Sequence record: MT446419.1
Length of the DNA: 52,329 nucleotides
Reading direction: 5' to 3' (one strand)
Origin: Escherichia virus TH53
Shown: piece by piece, positions 26,537 to 41,178 of the stretch
Position numbering within the stretch: the first letter of the stretch is position 1
How the letters are laid out: the number at the start of each line of letters is the position of its first letter
Notes under the pieces: generated by a model
Seen by the model: the letters and a program-made list of their open reading frames with translations, nothing else
What the model was told of the DNA's origin: nothing
Database searches by the model: none
Program-made: the position numbers and the translations under genes

Positions 26537-26722
26537 ATGCGCACAATACAATGTCCTAACTGCCATTATGAAATTGCAGAAGATGATTTCATAACGCAAC
26601 AATGTCCTATCTGTGATTCATATATGCCACTAAACCGCCTGTATTTAAAGGCCGATTCTGGTTTAGGCAGCATCATTCGCATCAATCCTGTGCAAACCCA
26701 GCCATTAGTGGATTGTGATTAA
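26537..26722 (+). CDS. zinc-ribbon protein
   Basis: CPNCHY ... CPICDS; GGAG RBS. Confidence 0.5.
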   Translation: MRTIQCPNCHYEIAEDDFITQQCPICDSYMPLNRLYLKADSGLGSIIRINPVQTQPLVDCD

Positions 26723-28760
26723 AAACAAAGAGAACGAATCAATGTCAAAGACTGATGACCTCGGACCGGAGTTTAATGATACAGTAGCCTCGTATCTCGC
26801 CAAACACTACGGTGACGTATTAAAAGTCTCAAGAGAAAGATTCTGTATTCTATCTTTGCCATTGCTCCGTCGATATATTTCAGAAAACACTGCAATAGTT
26901 GACAGCTATGAAGAACAAATTCAAGCAGAGTTAGAAGGCCAGGGTCTTGAAAACGATGCTGTACTGCGTTCCGTTTTCAGAGCACAACTTGAGCGTCTTC
27001 GCTCTGGCGACAAGAAAGACTCGACTGCCTATGCAGATGAGTTGAAGAAAGGTATTCAAGCAGGTGTTACTGACCGTGTTGCAGGTTCCACATTGGAGGA
27101 GCCAAACTCGGAACATGATAACACCGAGGAACTTGTAGACAAGATTCTGCATGACCCACATAACGTGGACCCAACTGTAATCCCTGCCAAGGTTGCAGAA
27201 CGTGTTCGCAAAATCTTGATGAAAAGTTTCGAAGCCTTTGGTAAATGGCAGTTCCACATTCAAATGGGATTTCCATTTCAAGCACAAGACTTTCACGATG
27301 TAATATTCAGTGTTGGTCAGAAGGTTGTTGACGGTGAGATTGACCGCTTAATAGTGACCATTCCACCACGACACTCTAAGACCCAGCTTATGAGTATTGC
27401 ATTGCCCTTGTATTCATTTTGCCACAATGAATCAAGCCATAACATTATTACCTCGTATGCAGAAGACGTTGTTCTTGAATCGAGTGGCTACATCCGTGCT
27501 GTAATGATGGACCCACTGTTCCAACGCATATTCCCGAAGGTGAGAATCGACCCTAACAAACGTTCTCTTGAACGCTGGGGTACAACCAAAGCTGGAGTTA
27601 TGCACGCAGTACCTACTGGTGGTAAGCTAACTGGTAAAGGTGCTGGACTTCTTGTTGCAAAATACTCCGGTTGTTTCGTGGTGGATGACGTTATCAAACC
27701 GAAAGATGCCTACTCTGACACAGTTCGAGCAGAAATCAACGACCGATTTGATAACACCTTTATGTCACGTCTTGCCAACGATGGTTGCATAACTGATTCG
27801 TACGGAAACCAAATTAAGTGTGCCCGTACACCAATGGTTATCATTATGCAGCGAGTTCACGACCAGGATTTAGTTGGTTACATACTCCGTGGTGGCTCTT
27901 CTGACAAATACCATTATCTCAATATCCCAGCGATTATTGAGAAAGGTGTTGGGAGTGCTGAATGGTATGATAAGCTAATCAAGAAGCAGAACTATACTCA
28001 TGCTATTCCCATTCTGTATAATTTGAACAGGAAGGAAGAGAAGTCTGCATTATGGCCTTCACGTAAGAGTTTAGAATCTCTGGAGGCAATGAAAGAGTCT
28101 AACCCATACACATACAATTCACAGTATGCTGGCGACCCATCTGCACAAGGCCACGGCCTTATCAAAGAAGATTGGTGGCAAGAGTATGAGCCAGACGTTT
28201 TCGACAGAAGTCGCATAGTCAGAAGTTTTATTACAGCGGATACAGCATCAACTGCCAAGTCTTATTCTGATTATTCGGTCCTTAAGCATTGGGGCGTGAC
28301 TAAAGAGCGTGATGTTTATTGTTTAGATATTATGCTCGGTAAGTTTGAAACTCCAGAACTCAAGACTGCTATTATCGACTTCTGGAACAAATGCAACAAG
28401 TTGGACTTGAAATGTGTAGGTTGTATTCCTCGTGCACTGTACATGGAAGACAAGTCTGCCGGACAATTCTTGAACCAACAATTTATCAGAGATGGGAGTG
28501 TCCGAGTTTTACCATTGCCTCGTGATGGGATTAATGGTAATGACAAGGTAACTCGATTCCTTAACGCAATCCCATATTTCTCGCAAAAGAGAATATTCTT
28601 CCCTGCTGGTCATGAACACATTGACCACGTTAGACGTGAAATACTTGGATTCACTTCTTTGGGTAGTGGTACTGGACACGACGATTGCGTCGATAACGTT
28701 TCAGATATGGTTGCAATCGAATTCTCAGGCCCAAGTGCCAACTACTCCGCATGGATGTAA
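26715..28760 (+). CDS. terminase large subunit
   Basis: Size and position before portal; Walker B-like CFVVDDV; C-terminal nuclease-like ITADTASTAKSYSDYSV. Alternative ATG start at 26742. Confidence 0.75.
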   Translation: MIKNKENESMSKTDDLGPEFNDTVASYLAKHYGDVLKVSRERFCILSLPLLRRYISENTAIVDSYEEQIQAELEGQGLENDAVLRSVFRAQLERLRSGDKKDSTAYADELKKGIQAGVTDRVAGSTLEEPNSEHDNTEELVDKILHDPHNVDPTVIPAKVAERVRKILMKSFEAFGKWQFHIQMGFPFQAQDFHDVIFSVGQKVVDGEIDRLIVTIPPRHSKTQLMSIALPLYSFCHNESSHNIITSYAEDVVLESSGYIRAVMMDPLFQRIFPKVRIDPNKRSLERWGTTKAGVMHAVPTGGKLTGKGAGLLVAKYSGCFVVDDVIKPKDAYSDTVRAEINDRFDNTFMSRLANDGCITDSYGNQIKCARTPMVIIMQRVHDQDLVGYILRGGSSDKYHYLNIPAIIEKGVGSAEWYDKLIKKQNYTHAIPILYNLNRKEEKSALWPSRKSLESLEAMKESNPYTYNSQYAGDPSAQGHGLIKEDWWQEYEPDVFDRSRIVRSFITADTASTAKSYSDYSVLKHWGVTKERDVYCLDIMLGKFETPELKTAIIDFWNKCNKLDLKCVGCIPRALYMEDKSAGQFLNQQFIRDGSVRVLPLPRDGINGNDKVTRFLNAIPYFSQKRIFFPAGHEHIDHVRREILGFTSLGSGTGHDDCVDNVSDMVAIEFSGPSANYSAWM

Positions 28761-28975
28761 ATATGGCGGTTATCACTCGTTTAGATGCCCGCTCACGCAA
28801 GAACAACTCCTTCCAGATTCAAGATTTGGAAGGAAACATTTTATGTGTGATTGAGGCAGTTTCTACCACAGAGAGCGACTGTGTTAAGTTAAAGCACGAG
28901 TCAAATCTGCGACTCCACACCTCCGACAACATTCAAATTGTTAAAGGTAATGGAACTATTCTAAGGAAGAAATAA
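28751..28975 (+). CDS. hypothetical protein
   Basis: Small ORF between terminase and portal. Confidence 0.4.
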   Translation: MDVNMAVITRLDARSRKNNSFQIQDLEGNILCVIEAVSTTESDCVKLKHESNLRLHTSDNIQIVKGNGTILRKK

Positions 28976-30291
28976 TGACTTCCAAGAAGAAAAACAATCT
29001 TTCTGTTAAAGTTGCAGATGGGTTAGAAAACCTTGTAACGGGGTTGGGCGGTCAGGCAGATAAGTCCACTTTTAACCAGTGGACTTTCTCAAACAAGAAC
29101 GCGAACTATCGCGAACTTATGAACCGCTTCCGTGAGGACTGGGTTGCACAGAAAGTGTGTACCGTCATTCCTCAAGATATGACGCGTAAGTGGCGGCATA
29201 TTGATACAGAAGAGGGACGCAAAGCGGATAAGAAACTTCGTATTCGTAAGCTGTTCCGTGAGGCGTATCAATGGGCCAGATTGTATGGGACTTCGTTTGT
29301 TCTGCTCGACCTAAAAGGTACGGGCAAACTCGATACACCATTGCGACTGGATAACTTGAAGACTGGATGTATTAAATCCATGAGAGTTATTGACCGCTCA
29401 CGCTTATTTGCCGCAGGGACTATGGTTCTGGACCCTTTGAGTCCTCACTATGGTTTGCCAGAGTATTATACTTTGGCTGGGTATTCCGGCTATATCCACT
29501 ACACTCGCTTTCTTCGGTTCGAGGGTACTGAACTGCCGCTGTTCGAATTCCAACGAAACATGTGGTATTCTGATTCGGTACTTATTCCACTGCTGAAAAC
29601 GATTGACCAATTCTACACAACTGCTGCTGCTGCTGCCAGCCTTGCCCAAGAAGCCACCATTGATGTGGTAACTGTTGAAGGCTTACAATCTCTGCTTACA
29701 TCACCGGAAGGTGAAGCTGCTGTGATGAAGCGCTTCAAGCTCATGAAGCTGGCAAAGAGTATTTATAACGTCTTAATTCTCGACAACACTGAGAAGTATG
29801 ACACCAAGTCAATTGCACTATCTGGTGTGAAAGATTTGATTTGGGAATACTTAAAGATAGTTGCTGCCGCAGTTGGTATTCCGGCTACACGTTTCCTTTC
29901 TGCATCTCCAGACGGTATGAATGCTACGGGCGAATCTGACCTCGTAAACTATATCGACTTGTTGACTGGCTTGCAGACTTCTGTGTTCGACCCTCGTTTA
30001 GATGTGGTAGACAAGATTGTCCAGGCGCACTTTGGCATCGAAGAATATGACTACGAATGGTTAGATATCTTCCCTGAATCCAATGTTGAGAAAGCGAAGC
30101 GAGCTAAAGATTTGGCATTCGCTGTTGACCTGCTGGTTAACAACGGCACCATAACCACTGAAGTTGCAAACGAAGTCATGTTCCATTCGGGCGTGTTCGG
30201 AACTTGTGGCCTTGGAAAGCCAAATCCTAATCCTCCTAACATCCAAAAGGGTAACGCAAGTGAAGCAAAACCAAAACCTGGTTCAGCTTAA
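28975..30291 (+). CDS. portal protein (putative)
   Basis: Inference from size and position after terminase; AAGGAAG RBS. Confidence 0.55.
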   Translation: MTSKKKNNLSVKVADGLENLVTGLGGQADKSTFNQWTFSNKNANYRELMNRFREDWVAQKVCTVIPQDMTRKWRHIDTEEGRKADKKLRIRKLFREAYQWARLYGTSFVLLDLKGTGKLDTPLRLDNLKTGCIKSMRVIDRSRLFAAGTMVLDPLSPHYGLPEYYTLAGYSGYIHYTRFLRFEGTELPLFEFQRNMWYSDSVLIPLLKTIDQFYTTAAAAASLAQEATIDVVTVEGLQSLLTSPEGEAAVMKRFKLMKLAKSIYNVLILDNTEKYDTKSIALSGVKDLIWEYLKIVAAAVGIPATRFLSASPDGMNATGESDLVNYIDLLTGLQTSVFDPRLDVVDKIVQAHFGIEEYDYEWLDIFPESNVEKAKRAKDLAFAVDLLVNNGTITTEVANEVMFHSGVFGTCGLGKPNPNPPNIQKGNASEAKPKPGSA

Positions 30292-31333: not shown

Positions 31334-31807
31334 ATGCCAAAGCAAGATTGGTCTATTAATACTGGTGAAGCATATGCAGGTGAACAATACGGCCTGGCTA
31401 CCACCAACTCCCAGCGCCTGACTTACGTTGCCGAAGAAGAAATGGCAAACTTTGGTCTGGCTGTTGTTCAAGGCACGGCATCCAATCAGGTTAAGCCTGG
31501 TATTGAATCCGACGGCACTGTTCTGGGCATTACTATGCGCCAGATTAACATCGAATCTGCCACTCGTCCTGGCGACGGCACTGTTGCAATTAAAGTTGGC
31601 TGGCCTCTGGGTGTTATGCTGTCTGGCCCAATCATGGTCAAACTGAAAACCGCAATCACCGACAAGAACATTGGCGTATCCACTAAAGGTGAATTTGGTG
31701 GCGTTGGTGCTGGGTACACTAAGGCAACCAACCTGACTGCCCTGCGTTATCCGGCTTCCGCTGGTGATGTTGTTCCGGTCATGATTAACGTAGTCCCAAA
31801 GCCGTAA
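31334..31807 (+). CDS. head-associated structural protein (candidate decoration protein), short form
   Basis: Strong RBS directly upstream of the major capsid gene; ends 5 nt after a CCCAAAG slippery site. Confidence 0.55.
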   Translation: MPKQDWSINTGEAYAGEQYGLATTNSQRLTYVAEEEMANFGLAVVQGTASNQVKPGIESDGTVLGITMRQINIESATRPGDGTVAIKVGWPLGVMLSGPIMVKLKTAITDKNIGVSTKGEFGGVGAGYTKATNLTALRYPASAGDVVPVMINVVPKP

Positions 31808-32100
31808 CGCCACCTCCAGCTCCTACAGTATCTGCTGTAGCAGGAGTTGTAACTGCTGACGCATCTGTATCTGATGCTACTGTAACTGTGGACAAGCTGT
31901 TTAAGTTTGAGAACTCTACAGCAACAGACTATAACTTCGCTGTTACACCTCCCGTGACTGGTGTTTCCGTGGCGGCAAACGGCACTGTGACTGTCCTGAA
32001 TGAGACAACCACAGATACTTCTGCGACAATCAAGGCAACAAATAAAACAGCATCTGGCGTAACTGCAACCAAAGAAATTACCATTACGCCGAAGGCTTAA
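31334..32100 (+). CDS. predicted -1 frameshift fusion adding a Pro/Thr linker and Ig-like domain
   Basis: Seen: slippery heptamer C-CCA-AAG at 31795-31801; -1 frame open from 31789 to 32100 encoding TPPPAPTVS... and a beta-rich T/V/A segment. Confidence 0.45.
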
Positions 32101-32122: not shown

Positions 32123-33163
32123 TTGCGCCTCACCAAACAATATGGATTAAATTACATGCCTAAGATGATTAAACTGGCGGACGGTTCTGAATTCGAACTG
32201 AACGACGCTATCACCCGTATTCAGGATTCTGGCACTGTTGTCCTGAATGACGACGATGCAGTATTCTTTCAACGCCAGCTTGAGTTCATTGAAGCTCAAA
32301 CTTATGACACTCTGTATCCAGAACTGGAAGCTCGTGCTGCTTTCGGTGTGGACACCACTGGTGGCGCTGGCGTAAACACTCTGACCTACCGTTCTTACAA
32401 CCATGTCGGTAAAGCCCAGGTAATTAACGCCCGTGCAACCGACCTGCCGAAGTCCAGCATTTCTGGTAAAGAATACAGCATCCCTGTTAAATCAGTTGGT
32501 ACTGCATTCGACTACGATATTGACGAAGTAGCGTCTGCTGCTGTTACTGGCCTACCGCTGGAAACCCGTAAAGCAAATGCTGCTATTCGTGGTTACGAAC
32601 AGTATGTTAACTCCGCTGCATGGTACGGCGATAAAGCTAACGGCTTTGTTGGCTTCTTCGAAAACCCAGACATTACCAAAGCAACTGTTGCTGCTGGTGC
32701 TGGTGGTTCTACCAAGTGGGCTGAGAAGACTCCGACCGAAGTTATTGCCGACCTGACCACTGCTGTGTCTGCAATGTATGCCTCTACTCTGAAAATCATG
32801 CGCCCGGATGAAATCTGGATGCCTGTTGAGCATGAGCAGTACATCTTCAACACTGCACGTTCTGAGCAGTCTGACAAGACGATTGGTCAGTTCTTCATTG
32901 ACAACAACCAGTTCATCAACTCCCGCGATAAAATCAAGGGTCTGAACGCAATCAAAGGTCACGGCGACGCTGGTTCTGATTGCTTCGTTGTTGTTTGCCG
33001 CAATGCAATGGGCAACCGCACTTTCCGTCTGCGTGAACCTCTGCCGCTGACCTGGCAACCGGTACAGCTTCATGGCCTGGTTTATGAAGTTTCTGGCCGT
33101 GGTCGTTTCGCTGGCTTCCAGGCGATGTATCCGGCAGCAATCTCCATCAACTCCGGCATCTGA
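32123..33163 (+). CDS. major capsid protein (putative)
   Basis: 346 aa, in capsid position after scaffold-like gene. Start uncertain (TTG 32123, ATG 32156 or 32165). Confidence 0.65.
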   Translation: MRLTKQYGLNYMPKMIKLADGSEFELNDAITRIQDSGTVVLNDDDAVFFQRQLEFIEAQTYDTLYPELEARAAFGVDTTGGAGVNTLTYRSYNHVGKAQVINARATDLPKSSISGKEYSIPVKSVGTAFDYDIDEVASAAVTGLPLETRKANAAIRGYEQYVNSAAWYGDKANGFVGFFENPDITKATVAAGAGGSTKWAEKTPTEVIADLTTAVSAMYASTLKIMRPDEIWMPVEHEQYIFNTARSEQSDKTIGQFFIDNNQFINSRDKIKGLNAIKGHGDAGSDCFVVVCRNAMGNRTFRLREPLPLTWQPVQLHGLVYEVSGRGRFAGFQAMYPAAISINSGI

Positions 33164-36367: not shown

Positions 36368-36823
36368 GTGAAACAATATTCTTTCTATAATACCGACCTC
36401 ATTATCGACGGTGCTCGTGTAGATGGTTTTACTTCTGGTAACTCCATCATCACTGCTCGTCGTAACGCACCTCAACATCTGCCTGTTATTGACGCGTATG
36501 GTAAGTTGGCTGTAGCTACTACGGCGGACTTATCCGGTACTATTACTTTCCCGCTTCTGCAAACCGCAGACTGGAACGAAATCCTGTACAGCCGTGCTCA
36601 GTTAACTCAGGCAACTGGCCTGTCTGGTAACAAATCTCTGTGGCAACCGCTCCAGATTCAGATTGTTGACAAGATGGGTGATGTGCTGGTCAATGGTGTA
36701 AACGGCGCTATCTTGCAGCAACCTGCAATTCAGCGTGGTGTGTCCTTCACGTCTAACGTGTGGTCTATCTTTGTAGAGCGCCTCCAGATTAAGACTGGCT
36801 CTTATCCGGAAATTGGCGTTTAA
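36368..36823 (+). CDS. tail tube protein (putative, GTG start)
   Basis: Size and position between sheath and chaperone. Confidence 0.55.
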   Translation: MKQYSFYNTDLIIDGARVDGFTSGNSIITARRNAPQHLPVIDAYGKLAVATTADLSGTITFPLLQTADWNEILYSRAQLTQATGLSGNKSLWQPLQIQIVDKMGDVLVNGVNGAILQQPAIQRGVSFTSNVWSIFVERLQIKTGSYPEIGV

Positions 36824-36834
36824 TTGGAGTAAGT

Positions 36835-37293
36835 ATGGCTTGTGAATTGCTTCAACGTGAATTCACAAACTCCAAAGGCGAAACAGTGTTAGTCGTTGTT
36901 CGACAATTGTCGGCTTCGGCTGCACTGTCTCTTCACGCGGAGTTGGTAAGCAAGTTAGGCTCACGAGTATTTCCATTCATCGAAGGTAAATATAACTTCG
37001 CTGATATTATATACTTGATGCAGCAAGTAGAGCATACCGTATTCACAGAATTGTTTAAGCGTGTTATCAGCATGCACTCGTCCATAGACGGACAAGAAAT
37101 CAAACCTGCATTATATGATATGCAGTTCAATGGCGAATTGATGTTGTCTTGCCATGTCTTTGCTTTCGTGCTCGAAGCAAACTTCCTTGATTTTTTCAAG
37201 CAAGGGCTCGAAATCAACGAACAGAGACGATTGGAGGCGGAGGAAGCATCCAAGCTGGCAGAGCAGAAGAATTCGAGTCCGGAGACAGTTTAG
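36835..37293 (+). CDS. tail assembly chaperone, short form
   Basis: Position before the tape measure; TTTTTTC slippery site inside the gene. Confidence 0.6.
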   Translation: MACELLQREFTNSKGETVLVVVRQLSASAALSLHAELVSKLGSRVFPFIEGKYNFADIIYLMQQVEHTVFTELFKRVISMHSSIDGQEIKPALYDMQFNGELMLSCHVFAFVLEANFLDFFKQGLEINEQRRLEAEEASKLAEQKNSSPETV

Positions 37294-37469
37294 TATCCCT
37301 GTTCCCCGACATAAAATATTTTCTGCATCGTCCTATAATCGAAGACAGTTCTCTCTGCAAGTTACGTGAATTGCAAGATGGAACCTATTCGATTATGGAC
37401 TTATTGCTATTCCACGACATTCTCGATTTGCGTAAGAAACTCGAACCAGTAGATGAAGACAATGGCTAA
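36835..37469 (+). CDS. tail assembly chaperone, predicted -1 frameshift long form
   Basis: Seen: slippery heptamer T-TTT-TTC at 37191-37197; the -1 frame opens exactly there and runs to 37469. Confidence 0.5.
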
Positions 37470-40400
37470 TCAAAAAGATTTAATGAAGTTGAGTGTTAAT
37501 GAGTTAATTGCATTAGGCTCTCAAAGCGGTCTGACTTTCCATGCTGGTATGAAGAAGTCGCACATGGTTCAACAACTTAGTGCGAGCGCTGCTTCGGGAT
37601 GGCTGGATACAAATGCAGAATTAATGGGTGGGTCGTTTGAAGATGATAGTTTAATTACTGAATCTCTGGGCGACTCTTCCATGATTTCAGACGCTGCCCA
37701 CATTGCACAAGTGCTCTCAAGTGCTGGCTACACAGAAGCATTTCATGCAGCAATGAATGGTCCATCACACCATGTAGAAGCTGTTCACGCATACATGGAA
37801 AGGCTTGGTGTCAACACAGACGATGTGTGGATGCACATGCCGAAGCCAAATCCGAACCTACCGCAGGGTAGCTTCAACATGCTTAATGCCTATATGCGAG
37901 ATACTTTGCAAGGGCATCAAGATATTATGCCAGAAATCCCAGGCCATTATGCTGGCGATATTATGGCTGAATACTCCACCAACCGTGGAAACATTGCTGA
38001 CTCATACAACTACATGGCCCACATGTATGTTGACCGTGAACAATACAGCAATCATGAACAATACGCAAGAGACATTAGTCGAGTTGCCAAACGTCTGGAA
38101 CAAGAGTTACCCGCAGCCTTTAAGGAAGTTGGGTATACCTCGGCCTCTAATGTAGGAAATAAATCGGCTCCACATATTTCTTACATGGATGCACTTCCTC
38201 AGATTGGTTCTCCTTCAATTGTTTCTGGCATTGCACATCCTCGTGCACCTCTTAACGCATCTGGACTCCCACTTGGTTCTTATGGTTCTGGCATAAATCC
38301 AGAATACTCTCTCACTGCATCATTAACTGGTGGCACTGGTTGGAGCGAACCAAGCAAGGCTTTGTATTCTTCCATTAGCGAAGCTGTTAAATCTGCTGCC
38401 AAAGTTTATTCCGGCTCCAAAGGGATGATGAATACTCGTCACGAAGTATCTGACCGTGACATGATTATGGATAGTGCAACTCGCTATACAGATTTGGAAG
38501 AAGCCAGAAGCGGGTACGAAAACCTTCGTTCTGAACTTGCAGATGAACCAGCTTATTCTGCATCGAGTGTTCGAGCTATTCTCGAAAACACTTATGACAA
38601 AATGGATGCCGAACCTGTTCGCATTCCAAAGATGAAGGGAGCTTCACAGCGAGTCGAAAAAGATTCGCAATCAACATCTACAGATTTTACAGCACAACTT
38701 GGAGAGGCCACCAATTGGAACTCTGCAAGAATGCGTCGTGAGGAAATTGCGATTGCAAATATGGATAGTGCTGGATTCCGTGATGTATCTGACTATGGTA
38801 CAGGACGTTCCGAGTCTCCCGTCAGATTCCATGACTTAGAACAGGGTAGCCAAGAGTGGCTAGACTTCCGTAAAAATTATGACATAACTGGCTCAACTGT
38901 TGGAACCTTCTTAGGAAACAACCCGTATACCCGACCTTGGGCGGGAATGATTGACAAGATTGGTTTATCTCGTAGCAAAGAGCACAGCGATTTCACTAAG
39001 AAGATGTTCGCTGATGGTCACAGGACGGAAGAAGAAGCACGCGCTCGTGTTGGTAAGGAATTTGGATTCGATATCAAACAAACTGGCGCTATAACAAATG
39101 ACAACTATCCCGCCTTCATGTATTCTCCTGATGGTCTTATTGGTGATGATGCCATTTGGGAGCACAAGAATCCGCAAAGGGCTGGTAAGTTTGCTGACCT
39201 TCTTAAAGGCGACCATCCAGATTACATGGACCAAATTCAATTTGGTATGCACGTTTCTGGCCGTTCTCGTGCTTTGTTCTCACAAACCATCAACGACGAA
39301 ACACGTTCACAATGGATTGAGAAGGACGAAGGATGGTACGAGAGAAACCGAAATCGTCTTGATTCTGTGCTTGGCCGTCTTGATGCTGGGCGAGAGTTTG
39401 TTAGAAACAATGCTGGGCTAGGCCGAGAAGAACTGATTGCTGGTGCAAGAAGTGCAATGACTGGTGATGGTATCTGGAAGGATATTCGTCAAAGGTCAAC
39501 TCGCGGCTACTCTGCCGTTGCTGGAACTCCAGAAGACCCATTTATTGGTTCACGTTCTTCATACAATCCAAAGGCATCTTATTCAGACTACCAGCCAAAC
39601 TTTGTAATGCACGAGCAAAACTTTCCAGCAACCACAGGAAATGGTGATACTGGAAATGACTCGATGGCATTGTCTGTTAAGAAAGGTATCCTTGCTGCCC
39701 AGGAAGAAAACAGGCAGAAGGGTATCGGTGCAGATGCAGACTTTAATGGCAAAGCCGACTCAATGGGCTGGGACCGTGAAAGATTTGATGCTGCCAATGG
39801 CGGTGGATATTCTGGCGGTGGCGGTGGTCGTGGCGGTAACTTCACAAGTGGTGGCAACTACTATGATGACTACGGTCGCATGGGTGGTTCACTAGCTGCT
39901 GGTATTGCTGGTGGCAGCATTGGTTCAGCAACCAACGGAGTTATGCAAGCATTGATGGCAACTCCTGCTGGACGTATGGCAGCTGTAGGCATTGGTGCTA
40001 TTCAGATTGGCAATGAAGCTGCTGAATACATGAATGACTTTATCGGCAACTCGCTTGATGCTGGTGTTATGAATCCTAATGAATATTCTTCCATGTCGCA
40101 AGGCTTGGAGATGTTAGGACTCAACTCACAACAAGCGGCACGTCTGAATCAAACCACACATAGTGCCTACAACACTATGCTTAACGGCGACCCCAGCGCC
40201 GCTGTGAACATCGTTCGCGGCAGTAGGGGATTGCTCACCATAGGTGATATTCGTGCGACAGGCGGCGACCCTGTGGCCCTGGCTCGCATCATGCAGGAAA
40301 GGGGCAAGGAGCGTGGCTGGAGTCAGGCCCGTATCGCAGGTGCTGCCGAAATGGCTGGCCTGAATGGGATGGCGAGAGCCTACGACCGCACGGAATACAG

Positions 40401-41178
40401 CCATGAGCAAGCTGGTTCGGTGGTAGAAGCGGGTAGAAACTCTGACTTTGCCGAAGGTATGGTTCAGTCAGAAATGTTGCAGGGGAGCCGCGCACGCGTG
40501 CTGCCTAGCTACAACGTGCCACAAAGTGTCCTATCTAATGGCGCCCCAATCTTCGAAGCCGGAAGTGCTGCACTTGATGGTGCTCGTACTGGATTCAATC
40601 AGGCCCGTGAGTTTGCTGGAAGTGTTTACGACTTTATCGCTCAGGAAGAATCCGGTGGTCGTGAATACAATAAAGATGGTTCTCGTGTAACAAGTCGCAC
40701 TGGTGCTCGTGGAATAATGCAAATTCTTCCTTCGACTGCCCGTGACCCAGGATTTGGAATCAAGCCATCTGATGGAACTCCAGAAGATGATGCACGAGTT
40801 GGTCGCGAATACTATGACGCAATGTACAAGCGTTATGGCGACCACGAAAAGGCAATGGCTGCTTACACCGATGGCCCTGGCACTGTAGATGAAGCCATTA
40901 AAGATAAAGGATTAGGTTGGCTTACTGCTGTTCCTAAACAGGCACAGAATCGCGTCAAAGCATTCCGTGAATGGTCCAAGTCTTCTCAATCTTTGGAAGA
41001 GGGTGCTACAGGGTTTACTCGCAATGGAATGTCTTATGGTCAAACCCAAACTGTTGTCAATGTTAAGATTGATGCCAAGGTCAACAACCAGGTTGCTTCT
41101 GCTACAGTTGCAGTTCCTGGGGGCCAGACTGTAACTCAACAAATGAACATGAACAACGGTGCACAACAAAGACGTTGA
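37453..41178 (+). CDS. tail tape measure protein with lytic transglycosylase (SLT) domain
   Basis: Seen: 1241 aa after the chaperone; SLT-like block EESGGREYNKDGSRVTSRTGARGIMQILPSTA near nt 40630-40760; Gly-rich segment near nt 39780-39940. Confidence 0.7.
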   Translation: MKTMANQKDLMKLSVNELIALGSQSGLTFHAGMKKSHMVQQLSASAASGWLDTNAELMGGSFEDDSLITESLGDSSMISDAAHIAQVLSSAGYTEAFHAAMNGPSHHVEAVHAYMERLGVNTDDVWMHMPKPNPNLPQGSFNMLNAYMRDTLQGHQDIMPEIPGHYAGDIMAEYSTNRGNIADSYNYMAHMYVDREQYSNHEQYARDISRVAKRLEQELPAAFKEVGYTSASNVGNKSAPHISYMDALPQIGSPSIVSGIAHPRAPLNASGLPLGSYGSGINPEYSLTASLTGGTGWSEPSKALYSSISEAVKSAAKVYSGSKGMMNTRHEVSDRDMIMDSATRYTDLEEARSGYENLRSELADEPAYSASSVRAILENTYDKMDAEPVRIPKMKGASQRVEKDSQSTSTDFTAQLGEATNWNSARMRREEIAIANMDSAGFRDVSDYGTGRSESPVRFHDLEQGSQEWLDFRKNYDITGSTVGTFLGNNPYTRPWAGMIDKIGLSRSKEHSDFTKKMFADGHRTEEEARARVGKEFGFDIKQTGAITNDNYPAFMYSPDGLIGDDAIWEHKNPQRAGKFADLLKGDHPDYMDQIQFGMHVSGRSRALFSQTINDETRSQWIEKDEGWYERNRNRLDSVLGRLDAGREFVRNNAGLGREELIAGARSAMTGDGIWKDIRQRSTRGYSAVAGTPEDPFIGSRSSYNPKASYSDYQPNFVMHEQNFPATTGNGDTGNDSMALSVKKGILAAQEENRQKGIGADADFNGKADSMGWDRERFDAANGGGYSGGGGGRGGNFTSGGNYYDDYGRMGGSLAAGIAGGSIGSATNGVMQALMATPAGRMAAVGIGAIQIGNEAAEYMNDFIGNSLDAGVMNPNEYSSMSQGLEMLGLNSQQAARLNQTTHSAYNTMLNGDPSAAVNIVRGSRGLLTIGDIRATGGDPVALARIMQERGKERGWSQARIAGAAEMAGLNGMARAYDRTEYSHEQAGSVVEAGRNSDFAEGMVQSEMLQGSRARVLPSYNVPQSVLSNGAPIFEAGSAALDGARTGFNQAREFAGSVYDFIAQEESGGREYNKDGSRVTSRTGARGIMQILPSTARDPGFGIKPSDGTPEDDARVGREYYDAMYKRYGDHEKAMAAYTDGPGTVDEAIKDKGLGWLTAVPKQAQNRVKAFREWSKSSQSLEEGATGFTRNGMSYGQTQTVVNVKIDAKVNNQVASATVAVPGGQTVTQQMNMNNGAQQRR

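Follow-up and report, generated by a model that had tools for sequence, protein, structure and literature searches.

A conserved slippery heptamer at the end of a capsid cement gene points to frameshift addition of an Ig-like domain in Chaseviridae phages

Introduction

In the head module of Escherichia virus TH53 (sequence record MT446419.1), a gene for a 157-amino-acid (aa) protein ends just after the heptamer CCCAAAG, and an open reading frame (ORF) without an ATG continues past it in the -1 frame. How is this downstream frame translated, and what does it encode? The original prediction, made from the sequence of the 52,329-nucleotide (nt) stretch analysed here (hereafter the window), was that a -1 frameshift at the heptamer attaches an immunoglobulin-like (Ig-like) domain to a head-associated protein. 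Addition of C-terminal Ig-like domains by frameshifting is established for capsid protein 10B of phage T3, the major head protein of Lactobacillus phage A2 and Listeria phages A118, A500 and PSA, as summarized in a review that cites the original survey of phage Ig-like domains (PMC5009743). The window phage is a phiEcoM-GJ1/ST32-like myophage of the Chaseviridae (Carltongylesvirus), and our literature search found no earlier report of a cement-gene frameshift for this family. We conclude that the 157-aa gene encodes a capsid cement protein and that a programmed -1 slip at CCCAAAG very probably yields a longer, Ig-bearing minor form of it.

Results

The 3' end of the 157-aa gene reads AAC GTA GTC CCA AAG CCG TAA, and its product ends in ...NVVPKP. 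As predicted, the gene closes on a canonical slippery heptamer, which lies in X_XXY_YYZ register as C_CCA_AAG, the 0 frame reading GTC CCA AAG. It falls inside the overlap of the 0-frame gene with a -1 ORF, which is closed by a TAA at 31786-31788 and open from 31789 to a stop at 32098-32100 (103 codons), and the -1 frame thus opens where the original prediction placed it. The spacing between heptamer and 0-frame stop had been given as 5 nt and is corrected here to 3 nt, the single codon CCG. Translation of a slip at the heptamer yields ...NVVPK-AVTPPPAPTVSAV..., reproducing the expected junction ...VVPK-AVTPPPAP... The slipped product would be 255 aa and 26.1 kDa, as compared with 157 aa and 16.4 kDa for the unslipped one, and the 99 added residues comprise an 8-residue Pro-rich linker and a domain of ~88 residues in the AlphaFold2 (AF2) model. 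The tryptic peptide AVTPPPAPTVSAVAGVVTADASVSDATVTVDK is encoded in the -1 frame upstream of a GTG at 31888, the start of a shorter listed ORF, and its production would require entry into the -1 frame at or before the heptamer.

The occurrence of the heptamer is unremarkable by itself, with nine copies of CCCAAAG observed in the window and 6.6 expected; the case rests on context and conservation. The features that depart from chance are the register of the heptamer, its placement at a gene end, its conservation among relatives and the -1 ORF that follows it without a start. A chance expectation drawn from -1 ORF lengths past all long ORFs of the window was uninformative, being contaminated by real downstream genes.

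The 157-aa gene encodes a capsid cement (decoration) protein. Its product matches the Pfam family PF22758 Phage_cement (E217 gp24/Pam3 gp6) with 61.4 bits (cut-off 27, E = 1.3e-16), with protein residues 4-152 aligned to positions 4-146 of a profile 146 positions long, and also PHROG 563, annotated as a virion structural protein. The AlphaFold model, with a predicted local distance difference test (pLDDT) score of 80, gave Foldseek matches to the decoration proteins of cyanophage Pam3 (8hdt_G, E = 1.8e-6), T1 (9kzj_I), FCWL1, HFTV1, TW1, E217 (8frs_f) and XM1, and it also matched the N-terminal base of the phi29 head fibre gp8.5 (E = 5e-4). Since a sequence profile of the cement family found no match in the PDB, the structural assignment rests on the Pfam and fold matches. 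Both agree with the earlier view of the upstream gene as head-associated. The C-terminal tail of the cement protein is flexible in the model (pLDDT 67).

To compare this junction among relatives, the locus was sampled from 18 annotated phage records, IMG/VR, metagenomes and Logan contigs, giving ~50 distinct sequences. An in-register heptamer starting 7 or 10 nt before the stop was found in 29 distinct cement genes, as CCCAAAG in 28/29 and CCCAAAA in 1/29, and in all relatives carrying it the 0-frame stop sits zero or one codon past CCCAAA[AG]. These genes span Carltongylesvirus, Loessnervirus, Faunusvirus, Sabourvirus, Suwonvirus, an Aeromonas phage and metagenomic contigs, down to ~55% protein identity. 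Their third codon bases vary in 150 of 156 columns and are invariant in only six, among them three ATG codons and the heptamer's CCA. Immediately before CCA stands a codon for V, I, G, L, A or S whose third base is invariably C. The constraint on the heptamer thus acts on nucleotides and not on amino acids. A distant relative, locus L047 (40% identical), has a different canonical heptamer, G_GGA_AAA, 22 nt before the stop, followed by a 103-codon -1 ORF encoding another Ig-like domain.

The heptamer and the extension occur together. Among the distinct loci whose heptamer is canonical and in register, 29 of 31 have a -1 ORF reaching 92-191 codons past the stop, whereas 14 of 16 loci without a heptamer lacked the extension, their cement genes encoding different, longer C-termini and the capsid gene coming directly after them (Fisher test, p = 4e-8, uncorrected for shared ancestry). 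Lack of conservation of the downstream frame in relatives had been named beforehand as part of what would refute the prediction. Compared with the window, the -1 ORF shows a ratio of nonsynonymous to synonymous divergence (dN/dS) of 0.12-0.21 at a dS of up to ~1.7, and of 98 ungapped columns, 45, 39 and 93 were variable at codon positions 1, 2 and 3, respectively. The downstream frame is conserved and, by these substitution patterns, under purifying selection.

The extension begins with the linker, which has the lowest pLDDT of the extension model (74) and no secondary structure. A linker of the form PK[AVS][VLT][TA]PP... precedes every type of extension domain in the same frame. The AF2 model of the window's extension (pLDDT 89.3; predicted template modelling score 0.75) is all-beta, with nine strands, the first of which follows the linker at residues 11-14. 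The predicted order of a Pro-rich linker and then a beta-rich Ig-like domain is therefore borne out by AVTPPPAP and this nine-strand beta-sandwich. The domain length was underestimated, since the ~70 aa given for it are those of the GTG-started ORF in the ORF list. A structure search, proposed at the time as a check, placed pb6, the tail tube protein of T5, and phi29 capsid chains at the top of the PDB matches, both Ig-like-bearing (Foldseek E = 1e-4 to 1e-3), with Rib, cadherin and Ig domains lower down. The extension also matched PHROG 13745 "Ig domain containing protein" (7e-7), and it had no Pfam match at E <= 1 among the curated Ig-like hidden Markov models Big_2, I-set, Ig_2, FN3 and PKD.

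At least four unrelated types of Ig-like domain lie behind the common linker in the sampled loci. That of the window is Big_2/pb6-like, and those of L033, L038, L040 and L024 are Ig_2/I-set-like. This alternative domain of the relatives reaches the Pfam gathering score for Ig_2 (28.2 bits vs 27), with Ig_3, I-set and Big_2 below threshold. Linker and domain are duplicated in tandem and in frame, giving a 195-codon extension, in phage flopper (L002, 1096-1683), phage SA91KD (L021, 1562-2149) and L056. Phages JL1 and DE15 carry an insertion of the same size at the same place, as seen by BLAST span only.

Could the downstream frame instead be a small gene of its own, which starts at GTG 31888 and makes a free Ig-like protein of ~70 aa, the heptamer being irrelevant? 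Public annotation leans this way, in that 12 of the 18 records inspected annotate a separate ORF; however, their gene callers use at least six different starts, the other six records annotate nothing, and none annotates a frameshift. No conserved start column exists. The extension of the window lacks ATG altogether, and the 31 extensions examined contain a single ATG codon between them. Wherever GTG, TTG or ATG turns up in the alignment, no more than 6 of 14 sequences have it in that column, and it alternates with the synonymous GTA, GTT or CTG. GTG 31888 itself is present in 4 of the 14 aligned relatives, with the synonymous Val codons GTA or GTT otherwise, and no purine-rich sequence resembling a Shine-Dalgarno (SD) element lies ahead of it. 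It encodes extension residue 32, downstream of the first three strands predicted by AF2 (residues 11-14, 20-22 and 28-31), so a product begun there would be a truncated Ig fold. Purifying selection and the Pro-rich linker reach back beyond this codon to the heptamer, whose invariant synonymous bases a separate gene would leave unexplained. Two loci retain the ORF without a full heptamer (L024 and L046, see below), which speaks for independent expression. Overall, we regard a separate gene as very unlikely and judge the annotation of the GTG-started ORF to be an artefact.

Annotation of this region is inconsistent in other respects. The ST32 paper lists ORF56 as missing from phiEcoM-GJ1 (PMC6266442). 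The phiEcoM-GJ1 genome (L020, 1162-1467) has the same 101-codon -1 ORF, which is unannotated there because it lacks a start codon. The SA91KD record places a "rho-independent terminator" just past the cement stop (1584-1626) and a promoter inside the extension, both within conserved -1 coding sequence. These calls are probably prediction artefacts, the "terminator" being a coding hairpin. Our scan of the window detected no promoter, and its sole terminator-like match (31751-31764) lies inside the cement gene, leaving the stretch from the cement stop to the end of the extension free of such sites.

A second alternative accepts that the frame continues the cement gene and holds that it does nothing, either as a functionless evolutionary passenger that is frameshifted nonetheless or as a decaying remnant that is essentially unexpressed. 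Several relatives without the extension, the low efficiency expected without a stimulator and two exceptions among the heptamer loci would fit such a history. In Yersinia phage PYps3T (L016, 1162-1320) the heptamer is kept, but an internal deletion between two ...TVTV repeats has removed the PPPAP linker and left 52 codons, about half a domain. In metagenomic contig L060 (1965-2010) the heptamer is kept with only 11 codons past the stop, where an assembly error is possible. Both look like decay of the extension. Against a general lack of function stand the dN/dS values given above, obtained over saturated synonymous divergence; the repeated replacement and duplication of domains with frame and linker kept; and the conservation of the heptamer, which indicates selection for expression in most lineages. 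We consider this alternative very unlikely. The natural deletions and the extension-less relatives do appear to show that these phages can do without the domain, which is the usual situation for phage Ig-like domains.

Termination-reinitiation, in which ribosomes that finish at TAA 31805 would search nearby for a start and resume translation in the -1 frame, draws on the stop lying within zero to one codon of the -1 coding start in all relatives. Translational coupling is frequent in phage structural operons. Past the stop, however, the first ATG, GTG or TTG in the -1 frame is 83 nt away (31888) and unconserved, and the linker codons between the stop and this position are conserved as protein. 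Reinitiation would also explain neither the fixed xxC CCA AAG nor the different canonical heptamer of L047, and it seems to us extremely unlikely. Stop-codon readthrough was rejected, as many 0-frame stops follow the TAA, and transcriptional slippage was rejected as implausible, the only runs being C3 and A3.

Several results weigh against programmed frameshifting, or at least against a sizeable yield. First, an Ig-like -1 ORF is kept in L024 (1960-2282) and L046 with only an A_AAG tetramer (GTA_AAG and GCA_AAG, respectively, the latter followed directly by TAA). A_AA.G is the best tetramer in E. coli (PMC4066793). In these two loci either a weaker, single-tRNA slip suffices or there is another route of expression, and they form the main loose end of our interpretation. 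Second, we found no in-frame fusion of cement protein and Ig-like domain, either with the 255-aa query or with a family profile against 1.8 billion representatives. This absence fits selection for having short and long forms side by side, although it also leaves the fused architecture a prediction. One candidate fusion, P0168 (248 aa), was rejected, its extra sequence being an internal insertion and not a C-terminal domain. Third, no virion proteomics for Chaseviridae was found in the searchable literature. Fourth, no conserved stimulator was found. RNAalifold gave 0 consensus pairs in 18 diverse relatives downstream of the site, and in the window RNAfold gave -22.6 kcal/mol for 31802-31880, with an unexceptional z of -1.75. 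Fifth, unstimulated heptamers are weak in E. coli, where the best V_VV.A_AA.G sequences reach ~0.3%, and up to ~3.7% in the best 3' context (PMC4066793). The long form may be very rare.

A downstream stimulatory hairpin had been suggested as a further check, and this expectation failed. The window has a local hairpin, which begins 15 nt past the heptamer and is probably not a stimulator, being too distant for the mRNA entry channel during the slip. An Rfam search of the site gave no match, and neither an upstream SD-like element nor a hairpin or pseudoknot at ~5-9 nt is conserved across the relatives. Folding is uneven among lineages: L042 folds with -30.8 kcal/mol from ~6 nt downstream, L024 with -27 kcal/mol (top 1% of local windows), and L046 shows no such fold. 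The heptamer itself is a strong one: of the -1 heptamers measured in E. coli, C_CC.A_AA.G has the highest efficiency, reaching 54% with the IS3 pseudoknot (PMC4066793). Given the lack of a conserved stimulator, we expect a low, lineage-dependent efficiency and few Ig-bearing subunits per capsid.

Table 1 Features of the cement locus and neighbouring head genes in the window
Feature	Coordinates	Strand	Basis or remark
Cement/decoration gene, 157 aa, 16.4 kDa	31334..31807	+	ORF list, Pfam, PHROG, AF2/Foldseek
Slippery heptamer C_CCA_AAG	31795..31801	+	X_XXY_YYZ register; 0 frame reads GTC CCA AAG
0-frame stop TAA	31805..31807	+	One codon (CCG, 3 nt) past heptamer
Pro-rich linker AVTPPPAP	31801..31824	+	-1-frame translation
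Predicted Ig-like beta-sandwich domain, extension residues 11-101	31825..32100, including TAA 32098-32100	+	AF2, Foldseek, PHROG
GTG-started 70-aa ORF	31888..32100	+	Equivalent in ST32 (gp56) is a separate RefSeq "Ig domain containing protein"
Local hairpin	31817..31849	+	Starts 15 nt past heptamer; RNAfold
Terminase gene	26715..28760		Head module
Portal gene	28975..30291		Head module
Head maturation protease/scaffold gene (Pa193_gp24-like)	Ends 31324		Directly before the 157-aa gene
Major capsid gene	ATG 32157..33163		349-base gap after the 157-aa gene

Discussion

Heptamer conservation across at least five genera, selection on the -1 frame, the lack of a conserved start and the Ig-like fold all support the original prediction that a frameshift appends an Ig-like domain to a structural protein, and each computational test capable of refuting it turned out favourable. 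In the mechanism that we propose, the majority of ribosomes would stop at TAA 31805 and release the 16.4-kDa form. A minority would slip one base back on C_CCA_AAG, the P-site tRNA-Pro moving from CCA to CCC and the A-site tRNA-Lys from AAG to AAA, and would then read the linker AVTPPPAP and the ~88-residue Ig-like beta-sandwich to give the 255-aa, 26.1-kDa trans-frame protein. With the extension attached to the flexible C-terminal end of the cement fold, short and long forms would assemble together on the capsid surface, where the Ig-like domains would be displayed sub-stoichiometrically. Attachment of the domain to the C-terminus of the cement protein follows from the frameshift model, and we infer its exposure on the particle by analogy with phi29 gp8.5. 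The displayed domains would most likely serve weak adhesion to carbohydrates or surfaces, as proposed for other phage Ig-like domains.

The locus resembles the T3, A2 and Listeria phage cases in having a slippery heptamer towards the 3' end of a gene for a structural protein, a start-less -1 ORF and a linker followed by an Ig-like domain. It also shares their domain mobility, seen here as unrelated Ig-like domains behind one junction. Three things set it apart from them: the carrier is a cement/decoration protein (PF22758), in place of a major capsid or tail tube protein; there is no conserved stimulator; and the junction is kept throughout the family, with exchange or duplication of the domain that follows. 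In its chemistry the site would be like the X_XXA_AAG sites of E. coli dnaX and the insertion sequences (IS) IS911/IS3, with tandem slippage and tRNA-Lys on AAG. Those sites use an upstream SD-like element and/or a hairpin or pseudoknot at ~5-8 nt; as neither is conserved here, efficiency is probably much lower. The outcomes also differ, being addition of a C-terminal domain here, truncation in dnaX and transposase fusion in IS elements.

Display of Ig-like domains on the capsid surface by decoration proteins, with a presumed role in accessory adhesion, is known from T4 Hoc, T5 pb10 and the N4 decoration protein, which the long form proposed here would resemble in this respect. Those proteins are single in-frame products with fixed stoichiometry and other capsid-binding folds, whereas here the Ig-like domain would sit on the frameshifted fraction only of a beta-tulip-type cement protein. 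The phi29 head fibre gp8.5 offers a further parallel, since its N-terminal base shares the cement fold and an outward C-terminal appendage continues from that base. In gp8.5, however, the appendage is an in-frame coiled-coil fibre and not a recoded Ig-like domain.

More tentatively, the 3' end of the cement gene might be a conserved recoding "socket" across Chaseviridae-like phages, made up of the heptamer and the Pro-rich linker, into which unrelated Ig-like modules are swapped, duplicated or lost. Frameshifting could then be kept for a low, tunable copy number of displayed domains on a tight cement lattice, with no conserved stimulator, and the minor form could set adhesion to the environment or to host surfaces. 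We put this forward as a possibility that we consider rather less likely than not.

These findings correct the annotation of the cement locus across a whole phage family and add a decoration/cement protein to the carriers for which frameshift-appended Ig-like domains are proposed. The locus offers a compact natural system for studying how a bare C_CCA_AAG sets product ratios and by what route display domains replace one another at a recoding junction. These coliphages and the related phages of Erwinia and Pectobacterium are candidates for therapy and biocontrol, and an Ig-like adhesin on their surface could affect retention on mucus or plant surfaces. The C-terminal socket could also serve phage display.

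Over the studied region, identity of the window is 98.5% with Escherichia phage EcoM1 and 97% with ST32. Phage Mangalitsa shows ~86-89% identity to the window over the same region. The gene order from portal through head maturation protease and cement to major capsid is found in the window and in relatives.

A second site in the window lies in a 152-aa gene between the tail tube (36368..36823) and tape measure (37453..41178) genes. It carries T_TTT_TTC in register at 37191-37197, and behind it a start-less -1 ORF runs 58 codons past the stop, to 37465-37467 (region 36835..37467). From its sequence, this site looks like the classic -1 frameshift of the tail assembly chaperone G/GT. The cement junction resembles G/GT as a conserved, here proposed, -1 frameshift in a structural operon with a fixed ratio of short to long product. 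It differs from G/GT in gene, position and function, G/GT being an assembly chaperone and not a virion component.

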